From positions 3,872,001 through 3,936,000 of the forward strand of contig CM000150.2 in the NCBI GenBank assembly GCA_000004695.1: a stretch of 64,000 nucleotides of DNA, written 5' to 3'. Shown here in pieces: positions 1 to 57,821 of the stretch. A program made the position numbers and the translations under genes. The notes beneath the pieces are model-generated. The model was not told the origin of the DNA. It did not search any database and worked only from the letters and a program-made list of their open reading frames with translations. Source of the DNA: Dictyostelium discoideum. Taxonomy: Eukaryota. The first letter of the stretch is position 1, and each line of letters begins with the position of its first letter.

Positions 1-2707
1 CGTGGTTTAAATAGAGTTATTGATTTCTTTGGGATGATAGAACCCTTTAGAGTTGAATAATTGAAAGAGTAACCATTTGGAACTGATGAATTATTATATT
101 TGAAAGCAACGGCATCCATTAATGGTGGCATTTTCTTTTTAGCCAAAGCAGAAACATCCTCGATGGTACCATAGATTTTAGAACTGTTTTCAGGTAATTG
201 AGTTACGGAACCCTCTTTAAAGGCACTATTGATATTTGAATCCTTATGACAAAACATTAAATCATGACCCAATGTATTACGATCGACTTCTTCCTCTGTT
301 AAAAGTGGTTCAGTTTTTGAAATAGTTTTCAAAAGTTTAATACTATTGATGAATGGTAATAAACAAACACCCTTATACAATGGTTCAGTGGGACCTCTAT
401 CGATACGGAAAGCACGTGGATAGAATTCGATGATTGGCGATTCCTCAACTGGTTCACCATCGACTGAAATACCCATTAATTTCTGATAAGGTTTTGGTAC
501 GAATTGACAACTTGCTGGTGGCAAAACACTCATCAATTGATTGAATGGTTTAAAAGGCTCACCCATTTCATATTGAGGATATTCGAATTGGTCAAAGAAT
601 TTACTGATATCGGTGATGTATGGTGAATAATGGTATGGATAATACCAACCCCAAGATGAGCACCCTTTGAAATAGTATTTCAATACCCAAACTAAACCTT
701 CGACATAGGATTTACAAATTTGTTTAATGTCATCTTCATTTTCAACTTGAAAGCATGATTGATAGTATCTATCTCTCCAACCCTCTTCAGAGTATTTAAT
801 ATTTCTACTATTATCAAAAAAGATCTCTTTTTCAGTTGGTAAACTACTATCATCATAACTATTGACAAATAATGATGGTTTATCATTTTCTTGATGTTCT
901 TTTTCATCGGCTTCCTCTTGTATTTGTGCTGCTTTTTGTTGTTTAGATTTCTTATTTAATAATTTCTTTTCATTTTCTGCTGCAACTATATTTAATTGTT
1001 GTTGTTGATCATCATCTAATTCAATTACTTTTAAACCTCTTTTCTTTGATTTCTTTGAGGATGCTGATTGTTCGTCATCTTGTTCAGTCTCTTCTTTATC
1101 TTTTTCTTTACCACCACCACCACCAATAAGTTTATTTTTAATTAATTCAGCTGCTTTTTTATTTGATTTAACGGTTGTAGTTGTGGTAGAAGAAGCTGAA
1201 GAATTTTTTGATTTTTTAGTTGGTCTTGAATCTTCTTCTTTTTCTTCATCTTGTGTAGTTTCTTCAACTGGTTTTAAAATCTCGGCTAAAAATTTATCAG
1301 CCGCTTCTTTATGTGATAATGAAGTTTTATCATTAAGATTTAAAGAATTTGGTCTTGATACTATATTTGATAGATTTTGTCTTTTCTTTAAGATTTGAGC
1401 ATCTTTTTGAATCTTACGTTGGAATGATTCTTCTTCACCTTTTGTAAGGGCAACAAAGATTTGAGATAAACGTGGAAAATTAACTTCACCATTGGACACT
1501 AGATAATCGTCGAAACTTGGCAACAACTCTTTATAACATTTGATAACTCTATCGATTGCACCGTCTTTAATCTCCAAGTTTGGTAAATGTGGTAAGAAAT
1601 CATTACCAACAAAGAAACAAAGGAAAATGAAATCATCGACGATTCTATCAATATCGAAACCAAATGGAGTTGACACCTTTGTCTCTAATTCTAAATACTC
1701 TTTCAATAGATGTAAATGAAGAATTTGATAATTTTTCACAAGGAAATCCTTAACACTATCATCGACCTCCTCCTTGCATTCAATTGCTAAATGACCTTTC
1801 TTGTGACATTTATGACAAACACCACGTGCAATTGGTTGAATAAACTCTCTTAAAATATCGAAATTAACTTCATGTGTTGCTAAACCTAACATAATTAAAT
1901 CTGCATCTAAACCATAAATAATATGTTTTAAATTTGGATCATAATCTGGTTGTGCTCTTTGATGTCTAACATAATCCATAATCTTATGTTCACCTTCACC
2001 TGGTACACTTGCATCTGAAATTATAATTTTAACCTAAAAAAAAAAATATATATTATTAATAATATGTTCCTCTATAAATTATTATTATTATTATTATTCG
2101 AATTATTATCATTATAACTTACATCTTTCCAAGCTGGATCAGTTGTTAATTTTTCAGCTACATAAGTTCTTAAAGATTCAGCAACTCTATCCATAAATAA
2201 AGTACCTGGAGTGATACAATTTGAATCGAATTTGAATTTATTTTTCTTCTCTTCCATATATTGTTCGTATTCTTGTTGAGTTGCGAGACCATCGTAAATT
2301 CTTTCACGCCATAATGCTGCTTCTTTATCTTTATCTAAACGTGAGTCTAATGCAGCTCTAAATCTACGAGTACGTTGTTGATTCATTTTTGCTCTTGGTG
2401 CAACACCATCAACTGCCATATAAATTAACTTTCTTGGACGTATAATTGCAAAGAGTAGATCCAAATATTCATAGATCGATTGAATCATATCTTCAATTGA
2501 TTTAGGCTTTGGTCCCTTCTCTGGATGTGCACAAGGATGTATAATACCATTCATATCTAAATATAGATTATCATACTCTCCATTTGGATTCGGTGTTGTG
2601 AAATCAACTACACTTCTACCACCATCTGCTTCTCTTGGTTCAGTTGTTTCTTGAATTAATCCTCCATATTTATCAATTAACCATCTAAAAAAAGCTGGAA
2701 TACCCAT
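1..2707 (-). CDS. 5'-3' exoribonuclease, XRN2/Rat1-like (3' end of gene lies outside window). Exons 2123..2707 and 1..2032; intron about 2033..2122 (GTAAGT..AG).
   Basis: Exon 1 starts MGIPAFFRWL..YLDMNGIIHPC, the XRN N-terminal catalytic signature. A GTAAGT donor follows ..PAWKD at phase 0. From 2032 down to position 1 the frame stays open through ..VKIIISDASVPGEGEHKIMDYVRHQ.. and a CCHC knuckle (CHKCHKKGHLAIEC). The track omitted exon 2 because it runs off the window edge. The track frame and my base count disagree by 1 bp somewhere between 2074 and 2705. Confidence 0.85.
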
Positions 2708-3326
2708 TCTCTATATTAATATCTATATTTATATATTTGTTTATGTATTTGTATATGTAAAACTATCTTTTTTTTTAAAAAATAAAAAAAAAAAAATAAT
2801 AAAATAAAATAAAAAATAAAAAAAAAAAAAGAAAAAACGGTTTTATTTATTTTTTATAATATTCATTTTTTTTTTTTATTTTTTTTTTTATTTTTTTTTT
2901 GTTAATACTTAAGGAAATTTTTAAAATATAAAAAAAAAAAAAAAAAAGATATTGATATCTTAAATAAAACTCATTTTGTATATTATGATGTATTTACCTT
3001 AACTCTAATTTCGTATGTATTTTTATGTTAAGCTTACTTTTTTTTATTAAAAAAATTTAAATAATTAACAATTAAATAAAATAGGGATAAAAAAAAAAAA
3101 AAAAAAAATAGTCGGTGTATTTTTTTTTAATTTTTTTAAAATTTAGATATTTATTTGGGGGTTTATTAATAAATGTTATAAAGTGGAAAAAAAAAATCAA
3201 TGAATTTATTTCTCTCTATATTTTCTCTCTCTCTACTCTCTTATTTTAAACGAAAATCAATTGATTCAATTTTATTTGATTCTTAAAAAAAAAATAAATA
3301 ATAATGTGTGGGATTCTTATTTGAGG

Positions 3327-3357
<31 letters not shown>

Positions 3358-3485
3358 CGAAAAAATTTTTATTTATTTTTTGAAAAAAAAAAAAAAAAAA
3401 ATAAAAATAAAAATAAAAAATAATAATTTTCATAAAAGTGTTAAAAAAAAAAATAATAAAAAATAAAATTAAATAAAATAAAATA

Positions 3486-3590
3486 AATTCAATTCTTTTG
3501 AAACAATTTCTTGAGTGGCCCGAGTCGTTAAGCATTACAAATCACACAATCATCATACCACTTGAGAAATTGTTTCAAAAGAATTGAATT
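3486..3590. repeat. Imperfect inverted repeat: arms of about 33 bp (aattcaattcttttgaaacaatttcttgagtgg / ccacttgagaaattgtttcaaaagaattgaatt) around a 39-bp GC-richer loop.
   Basis: Arms compared directly; 25 bp match perfectly, with 2 central mismatches. It sits about 550 bp upstream of the vps18 start. Confidence 0.6.
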
Positions 3591-3804
3591 TCAACCAAGA
3601 TAATTCTAAAAAAAAAAAAAAAAAAAAAGAAAAAAGAAAAAAATAAAAAAATATATTTATACACATATATTCATGTCTATAAATAGCCAATATTTTAAAA
3701 TAAAAGGTCAATAAAAATTTTCGTCATCTTCAATAATATATTATTTTATTTTATTTTATTTATTTTTTTTTTTTTTTTTTTGATTTTTGAAATTATTTTT
3801 TTTT

Positions 3805-3876
<72 letters not shown>

Positions 3877-4053
3877 TAAACATTAAATTAATTCCTTTCT
3901 TTTTTTAATTTATGGTGAAAGATATTGATTTCACCAATTAGAAGAATAAAGGATGAATTTAAATTTCAATTCTACCCAATTAATGGTAAAAAAAAAAAAA
4001 CAAAACTAATAATACAATCACCTATGACATCAAACTAACTCAAAGATATCTTA

Positions 4054-4085
<32 letters not shown>

Positions 4086-4134
4086 GAATGAGAATTTCAA
4101 TGATGGAGATTATAGCGGATACAATAATGGAGGT

Positions 4135-7788
<3,654 letters not shown>

Positions 7789-8003
7789 AATCAAAAAAAA
7801 AAAAAGAAAACAATAAAAGAATAATAATAATAAATAAAAAAAATAAATAAAAAGTAAAATATAAATAAGTGTTAAATTAATAATAAAATTGTTACATCAT
7901 CCACAATTATTTTAAAAAAAAATAAATAATAATTAAAAGTTATATATAAAGTTATTAAAAAAGTATTTTATTCTTTTATTTATTGATTATATTTTTTTTT
8001 TTT

Positions 8004-9446
8004 TTATTGAGATGAGATGATTGTAGTATTATTTGCAATAGTATTTGAAATATAGTATAAGAGTATACGCCATAATTGTAATACAAAATCATCAGCATTA
8101 TTTTCAAACACATCTCTAAGTTTTAAAATAATATCGGTTGGTTCTAAATGAGTTTTTAAGAGGTTTAAGATGAAATCGATCAATTCATCTTCCTTTGCAC
8201 CAAAGAACTCAATAACTTTTGTGGTGATCCAAGCTTTCATACTTTCATTGACAATTGTTGGATTCTTATCAACATAATTCCAATCAATTTTAAATTTAAA
8301 TATTTGTTCTCTATCATTTGATATTCTCGATAAATCAATACCACCATTTGAATTATTATTATTTGGTGTTGTTGTTGTTGTTGTTGTAGTTTCTGTAGAT
8401 TGTTGTTGTTTTTGAAGTTGTTGATATTGTTGTGGATTTAAAACTTGATCAATTTCATTATAATCCAATGGAATGAAAGTTTGTTTCTTTTTTGACATTT
8501 GTAAACTATTTTGTAATTCATTTTCAGATTGATTTTCATCATCCTCATCTATAGAGTTAAAACCTTTGCCTACTAATTTCAATTTTTTGTTATTATTGAT
8601 ATTACTACTCAATTGGATCCTATTTAATTCTTCTTCTTTTTGTCTCTTTAGTTCGAGTTCAGCCAATTCGGCCAATTCTCTCTGTCTATCTTTTTCATCA
8701 TCTTCTCTCTCCTTTTGTCTATATTTGATTGCTTCTCTTGATCTGATACGTTTTCTCATTTTCTCATCTGAATCTGAATATTCGTCCATTTCCAATTGTC
8801 TAGCTTTAATCTCTCTTTGTTCCTTCTCCTTTTCTTTCTCTTTCTCTTTCTCTCTATCAATTTCTTTGGTTCTCTCTCTTCTCTCCCAATTTTTCTCTCT
8901 CTCTTTGAAATCTTTTAAATCTCTTTCTTTATTCTTTAGCTCTCTCTCTTTGTGTCTTTGTTTCTCTTTTTCCTTTTCTTTTTCAATGATTTTAATTTTC
9001 TCTTCCTTTGTTAAGTCTCTTCTATCCTTATTATAGAAATCATTGATTTCATTTGATTCCATTTTCTTTTTCTCATAAATATTGATAAAATTCTTTTCAA
9101 CCATAGCCTTTATCGATTCCCTTAAAATGATATCTTGAGGTGAGTCTGATGATTGATCGGTTAATCCACCCTTCTTATCTAAATAATCACTGAAAAACTT
9201 TTGCCCTTTATCAACTTTTACAACTAATTTACCACCATCCCTATCAACCTCTAAATCATTAAGAACTCTCAATGCTGTAACTGCACCCTCTGCATGCTCA
9301 AATTCACAAAGTCCAAATTGTTTCAATTTTCCATTGGTATCTGATGCTCTATTCCATTTACTAACTTTACCACATTGATTTAATAATGATCTAATAAATG
9401 AATCTTCTACAAATTGTGGTATTTTACCTATATATGCTGTTGTACT

Positions 9447-9524
<78 letters not shown>

Positions 9525-10178
9525 GTTATTAAAATTATTTGTATTGTTTGTTGTGTTGGTTGTAGTAATAGTGGTAGGTGTAGATGTGGGTGTAGATGTA
9601 GCTGGTATAAAAGTTGATGGGGTAATGTTAGTGGTGGTAGATGCTATATTATTAATTTTATTTTGATTCAATGGTGTTGGTGGTGAATTAATATTTTCAT
9701 TTTGGTGATGTAATGGACTATTATTATTATTTTTATTATTATTAATATTAATATTATTATTGTTATTAAAAATATTAGGTTTTTGATTTATGAATGAACC
9801 TGGTACCATTGGGTAATGTGGTTGTGGTGGTTGTGTAGGTTGTGGTGGTTGTGGTGGTTGTTGTTGTTGATTGTGAGGATGCATTGGAATACCTCTTCCC
9901 ATTGGTGGTGTTGGATGAATTGGATATCCATTGTTATGATGTTGAAGATGTGGTGGTATTCCACCAACCATACCACCATTAAAATTTGGGGGCATTACAT
10001 TTTGTGGTGGGAAGGGGCCATGGTGTGGTGGAAATTGACCACCATATGGTGGTTGTACTAATCCAGGTGGGAAGGGACCAAATGGTGGTGGACCACCAGG
10101 TGGAAATCCACCATATGGTGGTTTCATCATCATACCTGGTGGTTGTGGTTGAAATGGATGATGACCATAAGGATTCAT
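8004..10178 (-). CDS. RBM25-like splicing factor: Pro-rich N terminus, RRM, RE/EK-rich region and C-terminal PWI domain. Single exon, 724 aa.
   Basis: RRM segment is AYIGKIPQFVEDSFIRSLLNQCGKVSKWNR..GLCEFEHAEGAVTALRVLN. The RE/KE repeat is ERELKNKERDLKDFKEREKNWERRERTKE... The PWI-like C terminus is ..MKAWITTKVIEFFGAKEDELIDFILNLLKTH... Confidence 0.8.
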
Positions 10179-10584
10179 TTTTATTTTATTTTATTTTATT
10201 GTATTTTTTTTTTTTTTTTTGTTTTGTTTTTATTTTATATAAAATTTAATTTACTTTTATATTTAATATCTATCCAATCTAAGTTTATTAAATTTTCACT
10301 TTTTTTTTTTTTTTCTAATTATCTATTTCTCTCCCTCTCTTTATGAATTATTTATATTTATTATGTCAAATTATTATTATATTATTATTACTAGTAATAT
10401 TATTATTATTATTATTATTATTAAACCTTTTTGATCGATATTCAGCAATTCACAAATATACACCAAACTTTCATATAAAACATTATTTAATATTATAAGT
10501 TATCAATTTTAATATTTGTGTTATGAGGAGAAAATGTAAAAGATCTGTTGAAAAATTTTCAAAAAAATATAAAAAAAAAAAAAC

Positions 10585-10900
10585 TTTTTTTTTTTATTTT
10601 TTTTTTTTTATTTTTATTTTTATTTTTATTTTTGGTAAATGAAAATAAGACTTAATTTTGGGTTGAATATTTTTTTATTTTTGATTAAATTATATCGAGT
10701 ATATAGAATTTGTAATTAATGTTTTTTTTATTTTTTTTTATTTTTATTTTTATTTTTTTAATTTTTATTTTTATTTTAATTTTTATTTTTGGTAAATGAA
10801 AATAAGAGTTGACTCGAAATTTAATTTTGGATTAAATATTTTTGGAAAACAATTTTATTTTAATTTTTTTTTTTATTTTTGATTTAATTATATCAAGTAT
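10585..10900. repeat. Two tandem copies of an approximately 150-bp intergenic unit (..tttttggtaaatgaaaataaga..ttttgg(a/g)tt(g/a)aatattttt..gattaaattatatc(g/a)agtatata(g/c)aattt..).
   Basis: Direct comparison of 10590-10720 with 10735-10915. Confidence 0.6.
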
Positions 10901-51640: not shown

Positions 51641-54025
51641 ATGAAACAAATAATTTTCATTTTTTTAACTCTATTTATTTCATTAATATTTTCCGAATCA
51701 TCTGTTTATAATAAATTTGAATTCTTAGGCGAAGGATGTTCAGATTTTGGTGATAATTTAACAATTTCAAATTGCCAACCTTTATGTACCAACCATTTTG
51801 CTTCAATTTCACCAAGTAGTTCTATTTCCAATGGTTTTGATATTATTTTATATAATAATTCAGATCAATCATGTAATGTACCACTAATTCCAACCTTAAA
51901 TTTTACTTGTCTTGATAATGAGACTCCAGTTAAATTTGAAGATTTTGCAGTTATTTGTCAACAACAACAACCACCACAACCAGTATCAAAATTTATTAGT
52001 TTCCAATTTTTAGGTGATTCATGCCCAGATAATGGTGATTATTTAAATGTTTCTAATTGTCAAAATGCATGTGGAACTGATTTAATTTCAATTTCTCCAA
52101 GTCCAGATGTAACAGATGGTTTCATTGTAAATTTTTATAATTTAACTGATACTCTTTGTAAAACACCAATTGCTAATGATGTTTTCCAATGTCAAAATAA
52201 TGTCAGTGAATCTATAATTAATGATGGTACTAATGAATTTGATATCTATTGTAGTACCACTGTTCCAACACCAGCTCCATTACCATCTCCTTCCCAATTT
52301 ACTAGATTCTTATTGTATGGTGATTCATGTCCAGATAGTGGTCAATATTTAAATATTTCAAATTGTCAAAATACCTGTGGTACTGATCTCGTTTCAATTT
52401 CTCCAAATCCAACTGTTACTGATGGTTTCCTTGTAAATTTTTATAATTTAACTGATACTCTATGTAAAACCCCAATTGGTAATGATGTTTTCCAGTGTCA
52501 AAATAATGATACCGAATCAATAATCAGTGATGGTGATAATGATTTTGAATTATATTGTGAATATCCAGCAACATTATCCCCATTACCAACAAAAACTCCA
52601 TCACCAACTCCTTCACCAACTCAATCACCAACTCCTTCACCAACTCCTGCCCCATCAAAATATAATGAGTTTGAATTATTGGGCGATAATTGTCCTTCTG
52701 CTGGTGATCAAGTTGTAATTGGTCTTTGTCAAAATGCTTGCAATTATAGATTGGTTAATATTATTCCAAGGGATGATGTTTCTGATGGTTTTATCATTGA
52801 GTACTATAATATTACTGATACTTATTGTCAAACTATTTTAGATACAGACGAATTCCAATGTTCTGCCAGTACTTCAGTTGTTGATTTGTTCAATATTAAT
52901 TGTGAAGCTGTTACTCCTGCACCTCCATCTCCAACTCCAAATCCTTCAAATGGTAATATCTTTGGATTTTATGGTGATTATTGTCCTTCTGCTGGTGATA
53001 GACTTGAAGTTGGACTTTGTCAAAATGCTTGTAATTATAAATTACTTAGTATCATTCCTAGTGACGATGATAATGAATCTTTTAATGTTCAATACTTTGA
53101 ATTAAATGATACCTATTGTCAAACCGTTGTTGATAATGATTATTTCGAATGTGCAGATGGTGAATCAAATATTGATGATTTCCAAGTTAATTGTTTAGTA
53201 ACCCCATCACCATCACCAACTCAAACTCCTTCACCAACTCAAACTCCAACTCAAACTCAAACTCCAACTCAAACTCCAACTCAAACTCCAACTCAAACTC
53301 CAACTCAAACTCCAACTTCAACTCCATCAAGATATAATTATTTTGAATTCTATGGTGATAATTGTCCAGAAGATGGTGATTATTTAGAGGTTGGTCTTTG
53401 TCAAAATGCATGTGATTATTTAAGAGTTAGTATCATTCCAAGACAAGGTGTTACTGATGGATTTACTGTTCAATATTATAAATTAAATGATACAGTTTGT
53501 GATAATCAAATTGATTCTGATGTTTTCCAATGTTCAGGTAGTGCTTCATCTATTGATTATTTTGATATTTATTGTGATGTTTCTACACCATCGCCAACTG
53601 AAACAACAACACCAACCCAAACACCAACTCAATCTCCTTCAACATCAGAATATGATGGTTTTGATTTTTATGGTCAAGTTTGTCCAACCACTGGTTATAA
53701 TCTTACAGTTGGAAATTGTCAAAATCTTTGCGACTATAGAAGAGTTTCTATTATTCCATCCGAAATAACTCAAGATGAATTCCAAGTACAGTTTTATCAA
53801 GTTTCAGATAAAAAATGTGCAAATGTTATTGAATCTTCATCATTACAATGCAATAATGGTGGTAACTCTACAACAATTGATCAATTTAACATTTATTGTG
53901 AAAAATCTTTTACCCCAACTAATACATCCTCTAATTCAAGCCATGAAAATATTGGTTATAAATTTGAAACTAATAATTTATTAATATTACTTTTATTGTT
54001 AATTTCAATTTTTATTTTTTATTAA
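51641..54025 (+). CDS. Secreted, probably GPI-anchored protein, 794 aa. It has a signal peptide, seven tandem Cys-containing domains of about 110 aa, PT/PS/(TQTP)n linkers and a hydrophobic C-terminal tail.
   Basis: Signal peptide is MKQIIFIFLTLFISLIFSES. The repeat consensus is F(E/Q)FLGD.CP..GD.L.(V/I)(S/G)NCQN.C.....(V/I)SI(S/I)P...V(T/S)DGF.V.(F/Y)YN(L/I)(T/N)DT.C.T.I..D.FQC...... Linkers include TPSPTPSPTQSPTPSPTPAPS and PTQTPTQTQTPTQTPTQTPTQTPTQTPTSTPS. The tail after SSNSSHENIGYKFETNN is LLILLLLLISIFIFY. Confidence 0.75.
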   Translation: MKQIIFIFLTLFISLIFSESSVYNKFEFLGEGCSDFGDNLTISNCQPLCTNHFASISPSSSISNGFDIILYNNSDQSCNVPLIPTLNFTCLDNETPVKFEDFAVICQQQQPPQPVSKFISFQFLGDSCPDNGDYLNVSNCQNACGTDLISISPSPDVTDGFIVNFYNLTDTLCKTPIANDVFQCQNNVSESIINDGTNEFDIYCSTTVPTPAPLPSPSQFTRFLLYGDSCPDSGQYLNISNCQNTCGTDLVSISPNPTVTDGFLVNFYNLTDTLCKTPIGNDVFQCQNNDTESIISDGDNDFELYCEYPATLSPLPTKTPSPTPSPTQSPTPSPTPAPSKYNEFELLGDNCPSAGDQVVIGLCQNACNYRLVNIIPRDDVSDGFIIEYYNITDTYCQTILDTDEFQCSASTSVVDLFNINCEAVTPAPPSPTPNPSNGNIFGFYGDYCPSAGDRLEVGLCQNACNYKLLSIIPSDDDNESFNVQYFELNDTYCQTVVDNDYFECADGESNIDDFQVNCLVTPSPSPTQTPSPTQTPTQTQTPTQTPTQTPTQTPTQTPTSTPSRYNYFEFYGDNCPEDGDYLEVGLCQNACDYLRVSIIPRQGVTDGFTVQYYKLNDTVCDNQIDSDVFQCSGSASSIDYFDIYCDVSTPSPTETTTPTQTPTQSPSTSEYDGFDFYGQVCPTTGYNLTVGNCQNLCDYRRVSIIPSEITQDEFQVQFYQVSDKKCANVIESSSLQCNNGGNSTTIDQFNIYCEKSFTPTNTSSNSSHENIGYKFETNNLLILLLLLISIFIFY

Positions 54026-54819
54026 ATAAAAAAATATTTATTTAAATAAATTAATTATTATTAATATTATATGTTAGACATTTTCGCGTTGTTCATGTGA
54101 TTAATAATTCTCTAAATTTTTAAACATTTTTTAAATTTTTTAAAACTGTTACAGTTTTAAAAAAAAAAAAAAAAAAAAAAAATTTAAATTCCTTCACCCA
54201 AATTTTTTTTTTATTTTGGTAAATAGATAGAAAAGGTAAGATTTTATCAAAATATAGTGTCATTTTTTCAAATTAAGTAAAATTTTATAAAAATAAGAAA
54301 TATAATTAAAAAACAATAAAAAATAATTAAATATATTTAAAAAATGAATCTTGTTATAAATAATAAAAAACATATTTAATTAAATATAATAAAGGAAAAT
54401 ATAAAATAAAAAATAATATGTAAAACATTTTCTTTTTTAGTTTTTATTTTTTAATTTATTTTATATTTTATTTTTCCAAATAAAACTTTTTTTAAATTAC
54501 AAACAGTGGAAATTATTCCCAACAAATTTGTAATGATGTGGAAAATATGCATATAAAGACAATATTAATAATAATAAAATTAAAAACCACACTGGTAGCT
54601 CTAATTAGGAAATCTACAAAAATTTCCTTAATTAATTTCAATTTTTTATATCAATTTCAGAACACATATTAATATTTAATTTATTATTATCAATTTTGTT
54701 TAAATTTTTTTTTTTTTTTTACCTGTGATCAGACCTTCAAGGAATGTCCTTGTGTCTTTTCGGCGGTGTTTGTTAAACGGTTTTATTTTTATTATTCAAT
54801 TGTATTAAATTTTTTAAAC

Positions 54820-54829
<10 letters not shown>

Positions 54830-54897
<68 letters not shown>

Positions 54898-55975
54898 ACT
54901 ACTTAAATTGGAAGAGGGTTCGGAGCTGCTGGGGTTTGCCAGGCTTTGTTGAATTTGTATTTGTGAAGATCTTGATTGGTGTTTTTTAGTATTGCTTCGT
55001 CGTGTTTGATTTTCTTTAGTGTGATGAATTTTTCAGTTTCGATGAGATTTAGTTATTCTGTTTCTATGACCTTTTGTTCGAATTTTGGCTCTGGTTTGCT
55101 TTCATCAGTGTTGAACAATTTGTGACAGATTATCTTCCATAATTGGTGTGCTATTATTCCTATGAGATTGGGGAAGATTCTCTCAGTTCTGTTGTATTTT
55201 GATATGTCTAAGGTATCCATCGACCATCTGTGGATTTTGATGAATGATAATTTGTTAACTGTTGATATGATGGTTTTTTCAATATCTAGGATATCTTGGC
55301 ATAGAGTGAAGAGGTGAGAATAAGGGTCTCTGAATAGGTGGCCACAGATCTTGCATCTGGTGTCTCTTTCGTGGTTGATACCTGGAAGTGATCTTGAGAA
55401 GAATCTGAAGAGGGTGTTTCTACCTTTTTGGTGAGAAATGCTGTTGATGTTTATGAATACTTTGGGTATTGCTGTGTTGTATCTCACCGCCCATAACTTC
55501 TGCCATTCTGTTCTTCTTGGTGTTGGGTGTCTGTCTTTGATCATGAGTTCGTAAATTTCTTTCAGTTTTAGTGGTTCGTCATTGTCGTTTCTTATACAGT
55601 CTGGAAGTTCATTTATCTTTGGATGGTTTTGGTAAAATTTGACTCTGAATACACCCCAGTGTCTGCACATATCGTTGAGGGTTGAAGTGTGGGCTTTTTT
55701 TCTACTTAATTGCTCCGTGTACCATTCTTGTAAGGTATTGTTGTTGTTGTTGTAGTTGTTATGGAGTAGCCTGTTCATGTACCAGATTTTGAATGCTATA
55801 TGTCTTAGTTCTATATCCCATAATTTTATGCCTCCTTCTTTCCAATCTGCATATGCTCTGTCTATTTTCATCATAGTTTTGTATTTTCTCTCTTCTGTAT
55901 ATGTATTCTTAACTGAGGAGAATAAGAACCATCTGGTCATGTTAAATTTTGTTTAAATAAATAAAATTTAAAAAA
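54830..55975 (-). mobile_element. 5'-truncated tRNA-gene-targeted non-LTR (L1-clade, TRE-type) retrotransposon. It comprises the ORF2 C-terminal fragment 55053..55940, a 3' UTR and a 66-nt poly(A) tail (the T run at 54830..54895 on the + strand).
   Basis: The minus-strand ORF ends with a CCHC-type Cys motif (CKICGHLFRDPYSHLFTLC), typical of the ORF2 C terminus. It is GC-richer than the surroundings. The poly(A) tail lies at the 3' end. Its truncated 5' end sits about 48 bp downstream of the 3' end of tRNA-Val on the same strand. Confidence 0.65.
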
Positions 55976-55977
55976 GT

Positions 55978-56008
<31 letters not shown>

Positions 56009-56022
56009 TTGTTAAAAATATA

Positions 56023-56095
56023 TGAGATAGATGGGGATCGAACCCACGACCTAACCCGTGTGAAGGGCTCGTGATAACCACTACACTACTTTCCC
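56023..56095 (-). tRNA. tRNA-Val (anticodon CAC), 73 nt.
   Basis: Sequence GGGAAAGTAGTGTAGTGGTTATCACGAGCCCTTCACACGGGTTAGGTCGTGGGTTCGATCCCCATCTATCTCA. The A box TAGTGTAGTGG and B box GGTTCGATCC are intact. The anticodon stem is AGCCC/GGGTT and the loop is TTCACAC. The acceptor stem has one A.A mismatch and one G.U pair. The D arm is identical to vertebrate tRNA-Val. Confidence 0.65.
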
Positions 56096-56109
56096 ATAGG
56101 CTGGAATGT

Positions 56110-56299
56110 TATCCTAAAATTTTTGGGAATTTTTATGATTCTTTTGTAATAATTTAATAGTTAATATTAATCACTATCAATCGGACCGCATCAATAAAAA
56201 GAAGACTCGAAAAATTCAGCCACAACTGGAACTCGAAACTCATGACCATAAAAATCCCGGAACACTTCATACCATACTGCTCATATAACACCAACTACT

Positions 56300-56339
<40 letters not shown>

Positions 56340-56340
56340 A
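56110..56340 (+). mobile_element. Possible retroelement 3' remnant: an approximately 180-bp GC-richer segment ending in a poly(A) tract of at least 40 nt plus an (AATAAT)n run. It begins about 15 to 50 bp upstream of tRNA-Val, on the strand opposite to the tRNA.
   Basis: Composition shift at ..caatcggaccgcatcaataaaaagaagactcgaaaaattcagccacaactggaactcgaaactcatgaccataaaaatcccggaacactt.. followed by a long A run. This location is typical of TRE5-type insertions upstream of tRNA genes. No ORF is retained. Confidence 0.3.
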
Positions 56341-56463
56341 TAACAATAATAATAATAATAATAATATAATAATAATAATAATATAATAATAATAATATAA
56401 TAATAATAATAATAATATAATAATAATAAAAAAAAAAAAAAATAAGAATAACAAGAAAAAAAG

Positions 56464-56498
<35 letters not shown>

Positions 56499-56688
56499 CA
56501 AATAAACTCTCCTAGAACACACTCAAATTGAGTGATGTTATTAAAAAAAAAAAAAAAAATAATTTAATGTGAGAGACCCTGTAAAAAAAAAAAAAAAAAA
56601 ACTAAAAATAAAATGAGATCTAGCATCTCAAGGAGAAGCAACTAATAATTGCGTTATCCAATTCAAAAAAAAATTTGTAATAATTTAT

Positions 56689-56745
56689 TGAACCCACGAC
56701 CTAGCCCGTTTAAAGGGCTCGTGAAAACCACTAAACCACTTTCCC
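56689..56745 (-). pseudogene. tRNA-derived fragment: 5' part of a tRNA-Val-like gene, truncated in the T loop. It is a duplicate of the 56023..56095 copy with about 12 bp of identical upstream flank (ggctggaatgtt on the + strand).
   Basis: Sequence GGGAAAGTGGTTTAGTGGTTTTCACGAGCCCTTTAAACGGGCTAGGTCGTGGGTTCAA.. diverges from the intact copy in the D and anticodon loops and lacks the 3' T-stem and acceptor. Confidence 0.45.
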
Positions 56746-57079
56746 ATAGGCTGGAATGTTATAGGTGGATTTACAAATTTTTATGTTTTTAGTTATCCAA
56801 TTCAAAAAAAATAAAATTTTTATGGTGGTTTCTTCTCTTTCATTGTAAATTTGACACACAAGTTGTTCTAATGTATATCCAAAACTCCATAGTTGATCCA
56901 TATTCAATCATTACCAAGCTTTTTTACATTGTATTCATTAAAACACACAACTATAAAATTAAAAAACCGTGAATATGGCTACTATTTATATTTATTTATT
57001 TATCTTCAACTGTTTTCAATATATTCTTGATAGCTTTGTGTTGGTATAATTTCTTTGGATAGTTCATCTGAACATTGCA

Positions 57080-57455: not shown

Positions 57456-57821
57456 TCAGAATAAATGACATTGTAACAACTGGTGGTCGGTGTCATCAGT
57501 GTTAGTTTTTCCTAATGATTTCTTTATTGTGTTGGTTATTGCTGCTGAAGTTATTGGTGTTGTAATGTTGGGTGATGATGGTGGTGTCGAATGGTTATTT
57601 AATTGTTGTTGAGATTGTTGATTTATTAATTGAATGTGTTGTTGAAGAAGTTGATTTTGTTTATCTATTACCTGTTGCTGTTCCCTTATTTGACGTAGCT
57701 GTTCATTGAAAGTTGATACCTGTGGTTGTTGTTGATGTTCCTCATTATCCTGTTGTTGCAATTCGTCATTATCAATATCTCCATTATTATTGTTGTTGTT
57801 ATTATTATTATTAGTTGACAT
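57456..57821 (-). CDS. Small Asn/Gln-rich coiled-coil protein, 121 aa. It may be a complete small gene or a first exon.
   Basis: ATG-initiated [60 protein letters not shown].. with Dictyostelium-style codon usage. No homology is recognised. Confidence 0.35.
   Translation of the reverse strand: MSTNNNNNNNNNNGDIDNDELQQQDNEEHQQQPQVSTFNEQLRQIREQQQVIDKQNQLLQQHIQLINQQSQQQLNNHSTPPSSPNITTPITSAAITNTIKKSLGKTNTDDTDHQLLQCHLF

Follow-up and report, generated by a model that had tools for sequence, protein, structure and literature searches.

The most probable reading (about 0.9) of the locus described here, which lies in a 64,000-nt stretch of the Dictyostelium discoideum genome (GenBank assembly GCA_000004695.1, contig CM000150.2, positions 3,872,001 to 3,936,000 of the forward strand; hereafter the window, with positions counted from its first nucleotide), is a tRNA-Val(CAC) gene followed, 78 nt behind and on the same strand, by a 5′-truncated copy of a TRE3-family retrotransposon without long terminal repeats (non-LTR) at 55944..54705. 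In this reading, the copy originated by target-primed reverse transcription, a conspicuous run of 66 A residues is internal to the element, and a 60-bp segment beyond that run represents its true 3′ end.

The tRNA gene is the only one in the window and occupies 73 nt on the minus strand (56023..56095). ARAGORN places it at 56022..56096 on the same strand, and the Rfam model RF00005 matches 56023..56095 from end to end with 54.5 bits (gathering score 29; E = 4e-10). Both the A box (TAGTGTAGTGG) and the B box (GGTTCGATCC; 56044..56035), read directly in the sequence, are intact, and the terminator region for RNA polymerase III (Pol III), likewise read in the sequence, spans 55982..56018 and consists of a run of five T (56018..56014) and a run of 27 T (56008..55982). 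The locus thus combines a cloverleaf with an anticodon, both boxes, and a downstream T-run terminator, and corroborates the 73-nt minus-strand tRNA-Val(CAC) with intact A and B boxes that had been proposed in an initial annotation made from the sequence alone. The Rfam alignment contains two non-canonical pairs, A·A at 5-68 in the acceptor stem and U·U at 13-22, the latter of which is common.

Limits of the element and structure of its 3′ end

Apart from the length of the A run, the element is ~99% identical to two other copies in D. discoideum, one located behind a tRNA-Ser(TGA) gene (L001 10760..11963) and the other behind a tRNA-Val(AAC) gene (L010 9847..10609). The alignment with L001 begins at 55944 and terminates behind a second run of 15–16 A, having crossed the open reading frame (ORF), the A run, an AT-rich spacer of 48 nt, and the 60-nt segment. 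An identical 14-mer, ATTTAAACAAAATT, sits exactly at both homology junctions of the element on the minus strand (5′ copy, 55945..55958; 3′ copy, 54692..54705); when the two 30-nt junction flanks were shuffled, a shared run of at least 13 nt arose in 24 of 20,000 trials. Because the limits of the alignment coincide with this target-site duplication, the element can be defined as the 1240 nt from 55944 to 54705 on the minus strand, which comprise the final ~1.0 kb of ORF2, the complete 3′ untranslated region (UTR), and the tail. A BLAST search without masking of low-complexity sequence was flooded by matches of A and T runs, and its top match alone was used.

The element has a GC content of 33–42%, compared with 7–20% in its flanks, in agreement with the GC-richer, same-strand element that had been recognized behind the tRNA gene. 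Its limits, however, had to be moved at both ends. The element had been started at 55975, with a spacing of 48 bp, but the part shared with other copies sets in at 55944, 78 nt behind the tRNA; it had been ended in a 66-nt poly(A) tail, but homology and duplication carry it another 124 nt to 54705. Accordingly, the search for a target-site duplication of 12–16 bp that had been suggested was successful, yielding the 14-bp repeat, but the junctions are 55944 and 54705 rather than 55975 and 54830.

Both the tRNA gene and the element are encoded on the minus strand, with the truncated 5′ end of the element facing the tRNA. The first base of the element (55944) is located 78 nt past the 3′ end of the tRNA (56023) and 100 nt past the start of its B box (56044). 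Because no external B box was found when the sequence between tRNA-Val(CAC) and the insertion was inspected, the internal B box of the tRNA, 100 nt away, is the likely reference point for the insertion.

The 3′ UTR begins at the natural stop codon of ORF2 (TAA; 54905..54903), and its parts follow each other in a fixed order. Eight nucleotides past the stop codon lies the run of 66 A (54829..54894, minus strand), which is flanked on both sides by sequence homologous to L001 and varies greatly in length among copies (35 A in L001, 31 in D. firmibasis, 32 in a second D. discoideum subfamily, and 38 in Tieghemostelium lacteum). It is succeeded by the AT-rich spacer TATAATATAGTTTAAAAAATTTAATACAATTGAATAATAAAAATAAAA (54781..54828, minus strand), which is kept in L001 and in the related loci L002, L004, and L007, and by the 60-nt segment (54721..54780, minus strand; 47% GC), which is present at the 3′ end of every sampled copy, just before the tail. 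The true oligo(A) tail consists of 16 A (54705..54720, minus strand), the last of which could instead belong to the duplication; here, the homology to L001 ends and the 3′ copy of the duplication follows. The initial annotation had given the length and position of the A run exactly (66 nt; 54894..54829) but had taken it for the tail, whereas it is an internal homopolymer of the 3′ UTR. The GC-richer, hairpin-forming segment at 54721..54780, also correctly described, had been left unexplained beyond the poly(A); it constitutes the conserved 3′ terminus of the element, followed by A16 and the duplication.

In a second D. discoideum assembly (GCA_054883475.1), the A run at the identical locus (L005 ~6190..6220) is about 28 nt long and contains one interruption, compared with 66 nt in the window. 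The difference is due either to a true instability of the homopolymer or to an assembly or sequencing artefact.

Another explanation for the two A runs, implicit in the initial annotation, is that of two insertions, i.e., a TRE3 fragment ending in a 66-nt poly(A) and a tiny second fragment consisting of the 60-bp segment and A16. The A runs do stand in tandem on the same strand, and stacks of tiny, 5′-truncated TRE fragments exist on the other side of the same tRNA. Nevertheless, a double insertion is most improbable, because at least seven independent copies, each in a different flank and with a different duplication, repeat the order of stop codon, A run, spacer, 60-nt segment, and tail, the terminal unit closing with ...AUCAYAGGU, and because ATTTAAACAAAATT brackets the entire 1240 nt, with no duplication around the inner part.

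The terminal segment, with its core ACACCGCCGA...GAUCACAGGU (54769..54721), is 100–85% identical across D. discoideum, D. citrinum, and D. dimigraforme and is present in a shorter form in D. firmibasis. Its predicted fold has a minimum free energy of −14.3 kcal/mol (z = −2.2), a stability reached by 5 of 200 shuffled sequences. When folded separately, the terminal sequences of D. discoideum, D. citrinum, and D. dimigraforme yield a common three-tier architecture, in which neither the closing ACC/GGU helix nor a GA/UC step varies; the pair changes comprise one compensatory change (C:G to A:U) and one change from G:C to G:U. The terminal unit of D. firmibasis has kept the basal helices but lost the apical helix, and the terminus of the second D. 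discoideum subfamily has kept the closing helix alone.

In four Dictyostelium species and two D. discoideum subfamilies, TRE3-type elements carry a terminal unit of this kind at their extreme 3′ end, and a CACAGGU-type end is still recognizable in Tieghemostelium. It is probably a cis-element that is recognized by the TRE3 reverse transcriptase (RT). A more specific and rather tentative proposal is that the unit ACACCGC...(variable hairpin)...AGGU-A(n) may serve as the cis-signal at which the RT starts target-primed reverse transcription, which would make TRE3 a "stringent" element that does not prime on the long A run; the latter would be a hypervariable internal homopolymer whose arrangement recurs in the C-module of TRE5-A.

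Placement of related copies and family assignment

The TRE3-type identity of the element, initially deduced from position and orientation at a single locus, is borne out by the placement of the entire family. Ten related copies were sampled from five species (D. discoideum, D. citrinum, D. firmibasis, D. dimigraforme, and T. lacteum). Like the window element, eight of them directly follow a tRNA gene of the same strand, at distances of 48–243 nt. In D. discoideum, these are L001, 87 nt after tRNA-Ser(TGA) (duplication TCCATATAAAGAGCA), and two copies at L010, one downstream of tRNA-Val(AAC) (9847..10609; duplication TTGATGTTGATGATGT) and one 50 nt behind tRNA-Val(AAC) (7972..9809; duplication GTTTTGAGGTTGAT). 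The others are L002 of D. citrinum, downstream of tRNA-Pro (duplication TCCTTTGATCAA); L003 of D. firmibasis, 77 nt after a tRNA (duplication GTTGCATGTGTATAT); L004 7415..7290 and L007 of D. dimigraforme; and L009 of T. lacteum, 48 nt after a tRNA (duplication TCTTACACTGACAT). One of the two copies at L004 is flanked by the duplication TCAAAAAAAGATGT. The copies are truncated at differing points, and most have private duplications of 12–16 bp. Given about 400 tRNA genes across 34 Mb, or roughly one every 85 kb, the downstream, co-oriented placement of eight of the ten copies is not a matter of chance.

At least two subfamilies are represented in the sample. The window copy belongs to the one that is met most often among the D. 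discoideum matches, which gives a weak hint to its place among TRE3-A to -D; the second D. discoideum subfamily (L010 7972..9809) is ~67% identical to the first at the nucleotide level. In the latter copy, the FADD motif of RT precedes the homologous C-terminal domain, and the A32 run is followed by a minimal terminus, ACACCGCUUUUAGGU-A18. Another element at L010 (~600..5900, plus strand) is apparently full-length, with two ORFs (models of 417 and 1059 aa; RVT_1). The C terminus of its ORF2 shares only 31% identity with the window ORF, and the locus contains no called tRNA gene beside this element, which is a more distant member of the TRE family.

TRE3 elements are inserted 40–150 bp downstream of tRNA genes and share their orientation (PMC5911963), with distances of 14–305 bp from the tRNA gene reported for Dd_TRE3-A to -D (PMC5006619, Table 1), whereas TRE5 elements are inserted ~44–54 bp upstream in the opposite orientation (PMC5911963; PMC5006619). 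Both are L1-type elements whose ORF2 is composed of APE-RT-ZF (PMC5911963; PMC5006619), and 61% of the tRNA genes of D. discoideum carry a TRE (PMC5006619). The window element is located downstream and co-oriented, which is not the placement of a TRE5 element; it combines the downstream distance (78 nt), orientation, and family-wide preference of TRE3 with an A16 tail, a 5′ truncation, and a 14-bp duplication. It resembles the TRE3 elements of D. discoideum (TRE3-A, which is Tdd-3, and TRE3-B, -C, and -D) also in the CCHC end of ORF2, and nothing contradicts its membership at the family level. The copy retains about a quarter of the ~5.2-kb element (length from PMC5006619).

Several points weigh against this interpretation. 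The assignment to TRE3 is based on integration behavior, domain content, and dictyostelid homologues, and not on identity to a named TRE3-A/B/C/D consensus. Two of the ten related copies (L004 8007..8910 and L008) have no called tRNA gene adjacent to them, and the copy at L002 is located 243 nt from its tRNA, beyond the range of 40–150 bp and separated from it by other debris. The window copy lacks RT and APE domains, and RT (PF00078, FADD) is found only in its longer relatives. Finally, the role of the stem-loop is putative, with modest support (z = −2.2, one compensatory pair, few independent sequences).

An assignment to TRE5 or to a non-TRE, L1-like family, with a merely coincidental position behind the tRNA, would be compatible with the domain order and zinc-finger motif that the ORF2 of TRE5 shares with that of TRE3 (PMC5006619) and with the relative at L004 8007..8910, which lies about 400 nt upstream of a tRNA gene in a TRE5-like orientation. 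It is very unlikely, however, in view of the eight copies on the downstream side. Moreover, a bona fide TRE5-A element in the sister assembly has no nucleotide similarity to the window element, and the TRE5-A pieces at the window locus and at L010 sit 47 and 49 nt upstream, respectively, on the opposite strand, as published. TRE5-A (DRE) belongs to a sister family in the same L1-type clade that also targets tRNA genes, and the structure of its 3′ end is analogous (the C-module contains an internal A run, behind which stand a terminal unit of ~60 nt and a short tail). It differs by its insertion ~48 bp upstream, where its 5′ end faces the 5′ end of the tRNA; at the window locus, TRE5-A pieces occupy the other side of the tRNA.

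The LTR retrotransposon Skipper-2 (DGLT-P) also inserts downstream of tRNA genes, at distances from 8–23 bp (in D. discoideum) to ~130 bp (PMC5006619), but the chance that the element is a remnant of Skipper-2 is negligible. The element has an oligo(A) tail, variable 5′ truncation, duplications of 12–16 bp, and no LTR; it contains no terminal direct repeats beyond the 14-bp duplication, and its relatives carry a non-LTR RT with FADD and are named non-LTR reverse transcriptases by their sources.

The TRE3-family element of the window also has a counterpart outside the genus Dictyostelium. The protein of the T. lacteum element at L009 aligns with 92% of the window ORF at 42% identity. The element follows a tRNA of the same strand at a distance of 48 nt and has a duplication of 14 bp, an internal run of 38 A after the ORF2 stop, and a terminus ending in ...CACAGGUCC-A9. 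We infer that it is Dl_TRE3-A, because this is the sole downstream-targeting non-LTR family listed for T. lacteum (PMC5006619). It differs from the window element by a much longer 3′ UTR (~300 nt) that lacks the ACACCGCCGA motif. A more remote parallel exists with mammalian L1 and other APE-type non-LTR elements, in which target-primed reverse transcription produces 5′-truncated, A-tailed copies with duplications and ORF2 contains a C-terminal Cys/His motif. However, mammalian L1 does not target Pol III genes and relies on its poly(A) tail, whereas the element described here has a conserved 3′ stem-loop before the tail.

The origin of the window copy would then be as follows. The Pol III complex on the tRNA gene would have guided an active TRE3 element to a site about 100 nt downstream of the B box, where the TRE3 endonuclease would have introduced a nick into the AT-rich flank. 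Primed from this nick, reverse transcription would have started on the 3′ end of the element and aborted after ~1.2 kb, causing the 5′ truncation, and a staggered cleavage of the second strand would have given rise to the 14-bp duplication ATTTAAACAAAATT.

ORF2 remnant and gene models

The C-terminal remnant of ORF2 comprises 296 codons (55053..55943, minus strand) and is closed by a premature TAA (55055..55053). The corresponding ORF of 295 codons (55940..55053), situated in the GC-richer stretch, contains the peptide CKICGHLFRDPYSHLFTLC, a zinc-finger-like CCHC motif of the form C-X2-C-X9-H-X4-C (55299..55355, minus strand), whose residues C196, C199, H209, and C214 are invariant in an alignment with seven homologues. 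The element has therefore kept the C-terminal CCHC-finger part of ORF2, as the initial annotation had proposed. The premature stop codon results from a T-to-A change, where L001 has TTA, and is located 50 codons ahead of the natural stop; the homologues P0001 and P0003 extend to ...NPLPI. In the L001 copy, the frame is broken by a frameshift.

Protein matches of the window ORF are restricted to dictyostelids (D. firmibasis, D. citrinum, D. dimigraforme, D. discoideum, and T. lacteum), with the best match in D. firmibasis (54% identity, full coverage, E = 4e-102). The homologue of T. lacteum is named "Non-LTR retroelement reverse transcriptase-like protein" by its source, and the homologues P0008 and P0012 carry PF00078. 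A Pfam search of the window ORF and longer homologues detected no domain above threshold and only sub-threshold matches to Forkhead (winged-helix). Against a cut-off of 27 bits, these matches reached 19 bits (E = 0.0015) for residues 115–179 of the window ORF (about 55404..55598, minus strand) and 23.5 bits (E = 6e-5) for the same stretch in the D. firmibasis homologue, and they may reflect either a winged-helix-like fold in the C-terminal region of ORF2 or noise.

The window copy contains no RT or endonuclease sequence, its truncation being located downstream of the RT; an APE domain was found in none of the sampled related copies. The ORF1/ORF2 junction, at which a −1 frameshift is a criterion for TRE3, was lost with the 5′ truncation. 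Because the copy lacks RT and endonuclease and is interrupted by a premature stop codon, it is a dead, inert relic.

In the databases, the same sequence appears as protein-coding genes. In GCA_054883475.1, the window element figures as a hypothetical protein of 326 aa (L005 6225..7262), and the first 144 residues of the window ORF match DDB_G0268722 of AX4 with 99% identity. Such models are what would be expected of a genuine host gene, but it is next to impossible that the element represents one: the sequence is multi-copy and always accompanied by A tails and duplications beside tRNA genes, its frame is broken by a premature stop in the window and by a frameshift in L001, and gene models of its relatives (P0007 and P0008) are artefactual. 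The model of P0007 (L001 10001..11090) spans the tRNA-Ser gene, and that of P0008 (L010 8001..10433) fuses two adjacent TRE3 copies of different subfamilies. A recombinant of two subfamilies, as suggested by the identity of P0008 to the window ORF (55%, then 100%), was considered and rejected; at the DNA level, two insertions lie side by side, each bracketed by a separate duplication.

Upstream side of the tRNA gene

The corresponding locus of the sister assembly GCA_054883475.1 (L005/L006) differs from positions 54600..56142 of the window only in A-run length and is otherwise 100% identical, and the window ORFs at 51641-54025 (794 aa) and 57456-57821 (121 aa) are present residue for residue. 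In the sister assembly, a 2370-bp TRE5-A.2-like element (L006 11685..14054) is inserted 47 nt upstream of the same tRNA-Val, in the opposite orientation and with its 5′ end facing the tRNA. It consists of a duplicated A-module, an ORF1 of 444 codons, an ORF2 stub, and B- and C-modules, and its 17-bp duplication corresponds to window positions 56126..56142; the window has the empty site (56126..56143). The possibility that the window and L005 hold different elements at one breakpoint was thereby resolved: L005/L006 have the insertion, and the window has the site without it. Because TRE5-A depends on the B box and on TFIIIC (PMC5911963), its insertion 47 nt upstream in the sister assembly leads us to infer that the tRNA-Val(CAC) gene is bound by the Pol III machinery, or was so until recently.

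Older traces of TRE5-type insertions are present in the window itself. An old remnant of a TRE5-A C-module (56552..56673, plus strand) shares 84% identity with the C-module of the element inserted at L006; it contains an internal run of 20 A and ends in GTTATCCAATTC-A9. TRE5-A therefore shares the arrangement of an internal A run followed by a ~60-nt terminal unit with the TRE3 element. Two GC-richer fragments on the plus strand (56156..56337 and 56495..56560) end in A35 and A17, respectively, and have a TRE5-like orientation upstream of the tRNA. In BLAST searches against all fetched loci, the locus in the sister assembly was their sole match; by eye, 56495..56560 resembles the end of a repeat in D. 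dimigraforme (L004 ~8925..8960). The two fragments possibly belong to TRE5-B or TRE5-C. Between the TRE5-type fragments lies a microsatellite of the AAT/ATA type (56339..56430, plus strand; about 90 nt).

A truncated and diverged duplicate of the tRNA-Val gene (56687..56762, minus strand) comprises only positions 1–59, with the CAC in the anticodon loop changed to TAA, and was called neither by ARAGORN nor by Rfam. It shares its 17-nt upstream flank, ATAACATTCCAGCCTAT, with the intact gene. At a distance of 46 nt upstream of the duplicate, the 12-nt TRE5-A terminus GTTATCCAATTC is followed by A8 (56792..56811, plus strand). Judging from the sequence, this looks like an extremely 5′-truncated TRE5-A insertion, which suggests that the duplicate was once an active Pol III target. 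The 13-mer TTTGTAATAATTT occurs twice on the plus strand, 48 nt upstream of the intact tRNA (56143..56155) and directly after the A9 of the TRE5-A remnant, abutting the tRNA duplicate (56674..56686); the pair may represent the duplication of the oldest TRE5 insertion or a chance occurrence in AT-rich DNA. Altogether, the upstream side shows the accumulated TRE debris that is usual near a Dictyostelium tRNA gene.

The position-specific retrotransposition of TRE3 and TRE5 at the tRNA genes of D. discoideum is a textbook case, and the phenomenon as such is already known. The analysis of the present locus adds the exact boundaries of an element, an explanation for the 60-bp segment, and the exposure of "hypothetical protein" models as retrotransposon debris. 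In addition, the locus provides a clean natural pair of an occupied and an empty TRE5-A site between two assemblies of D. discoideum.

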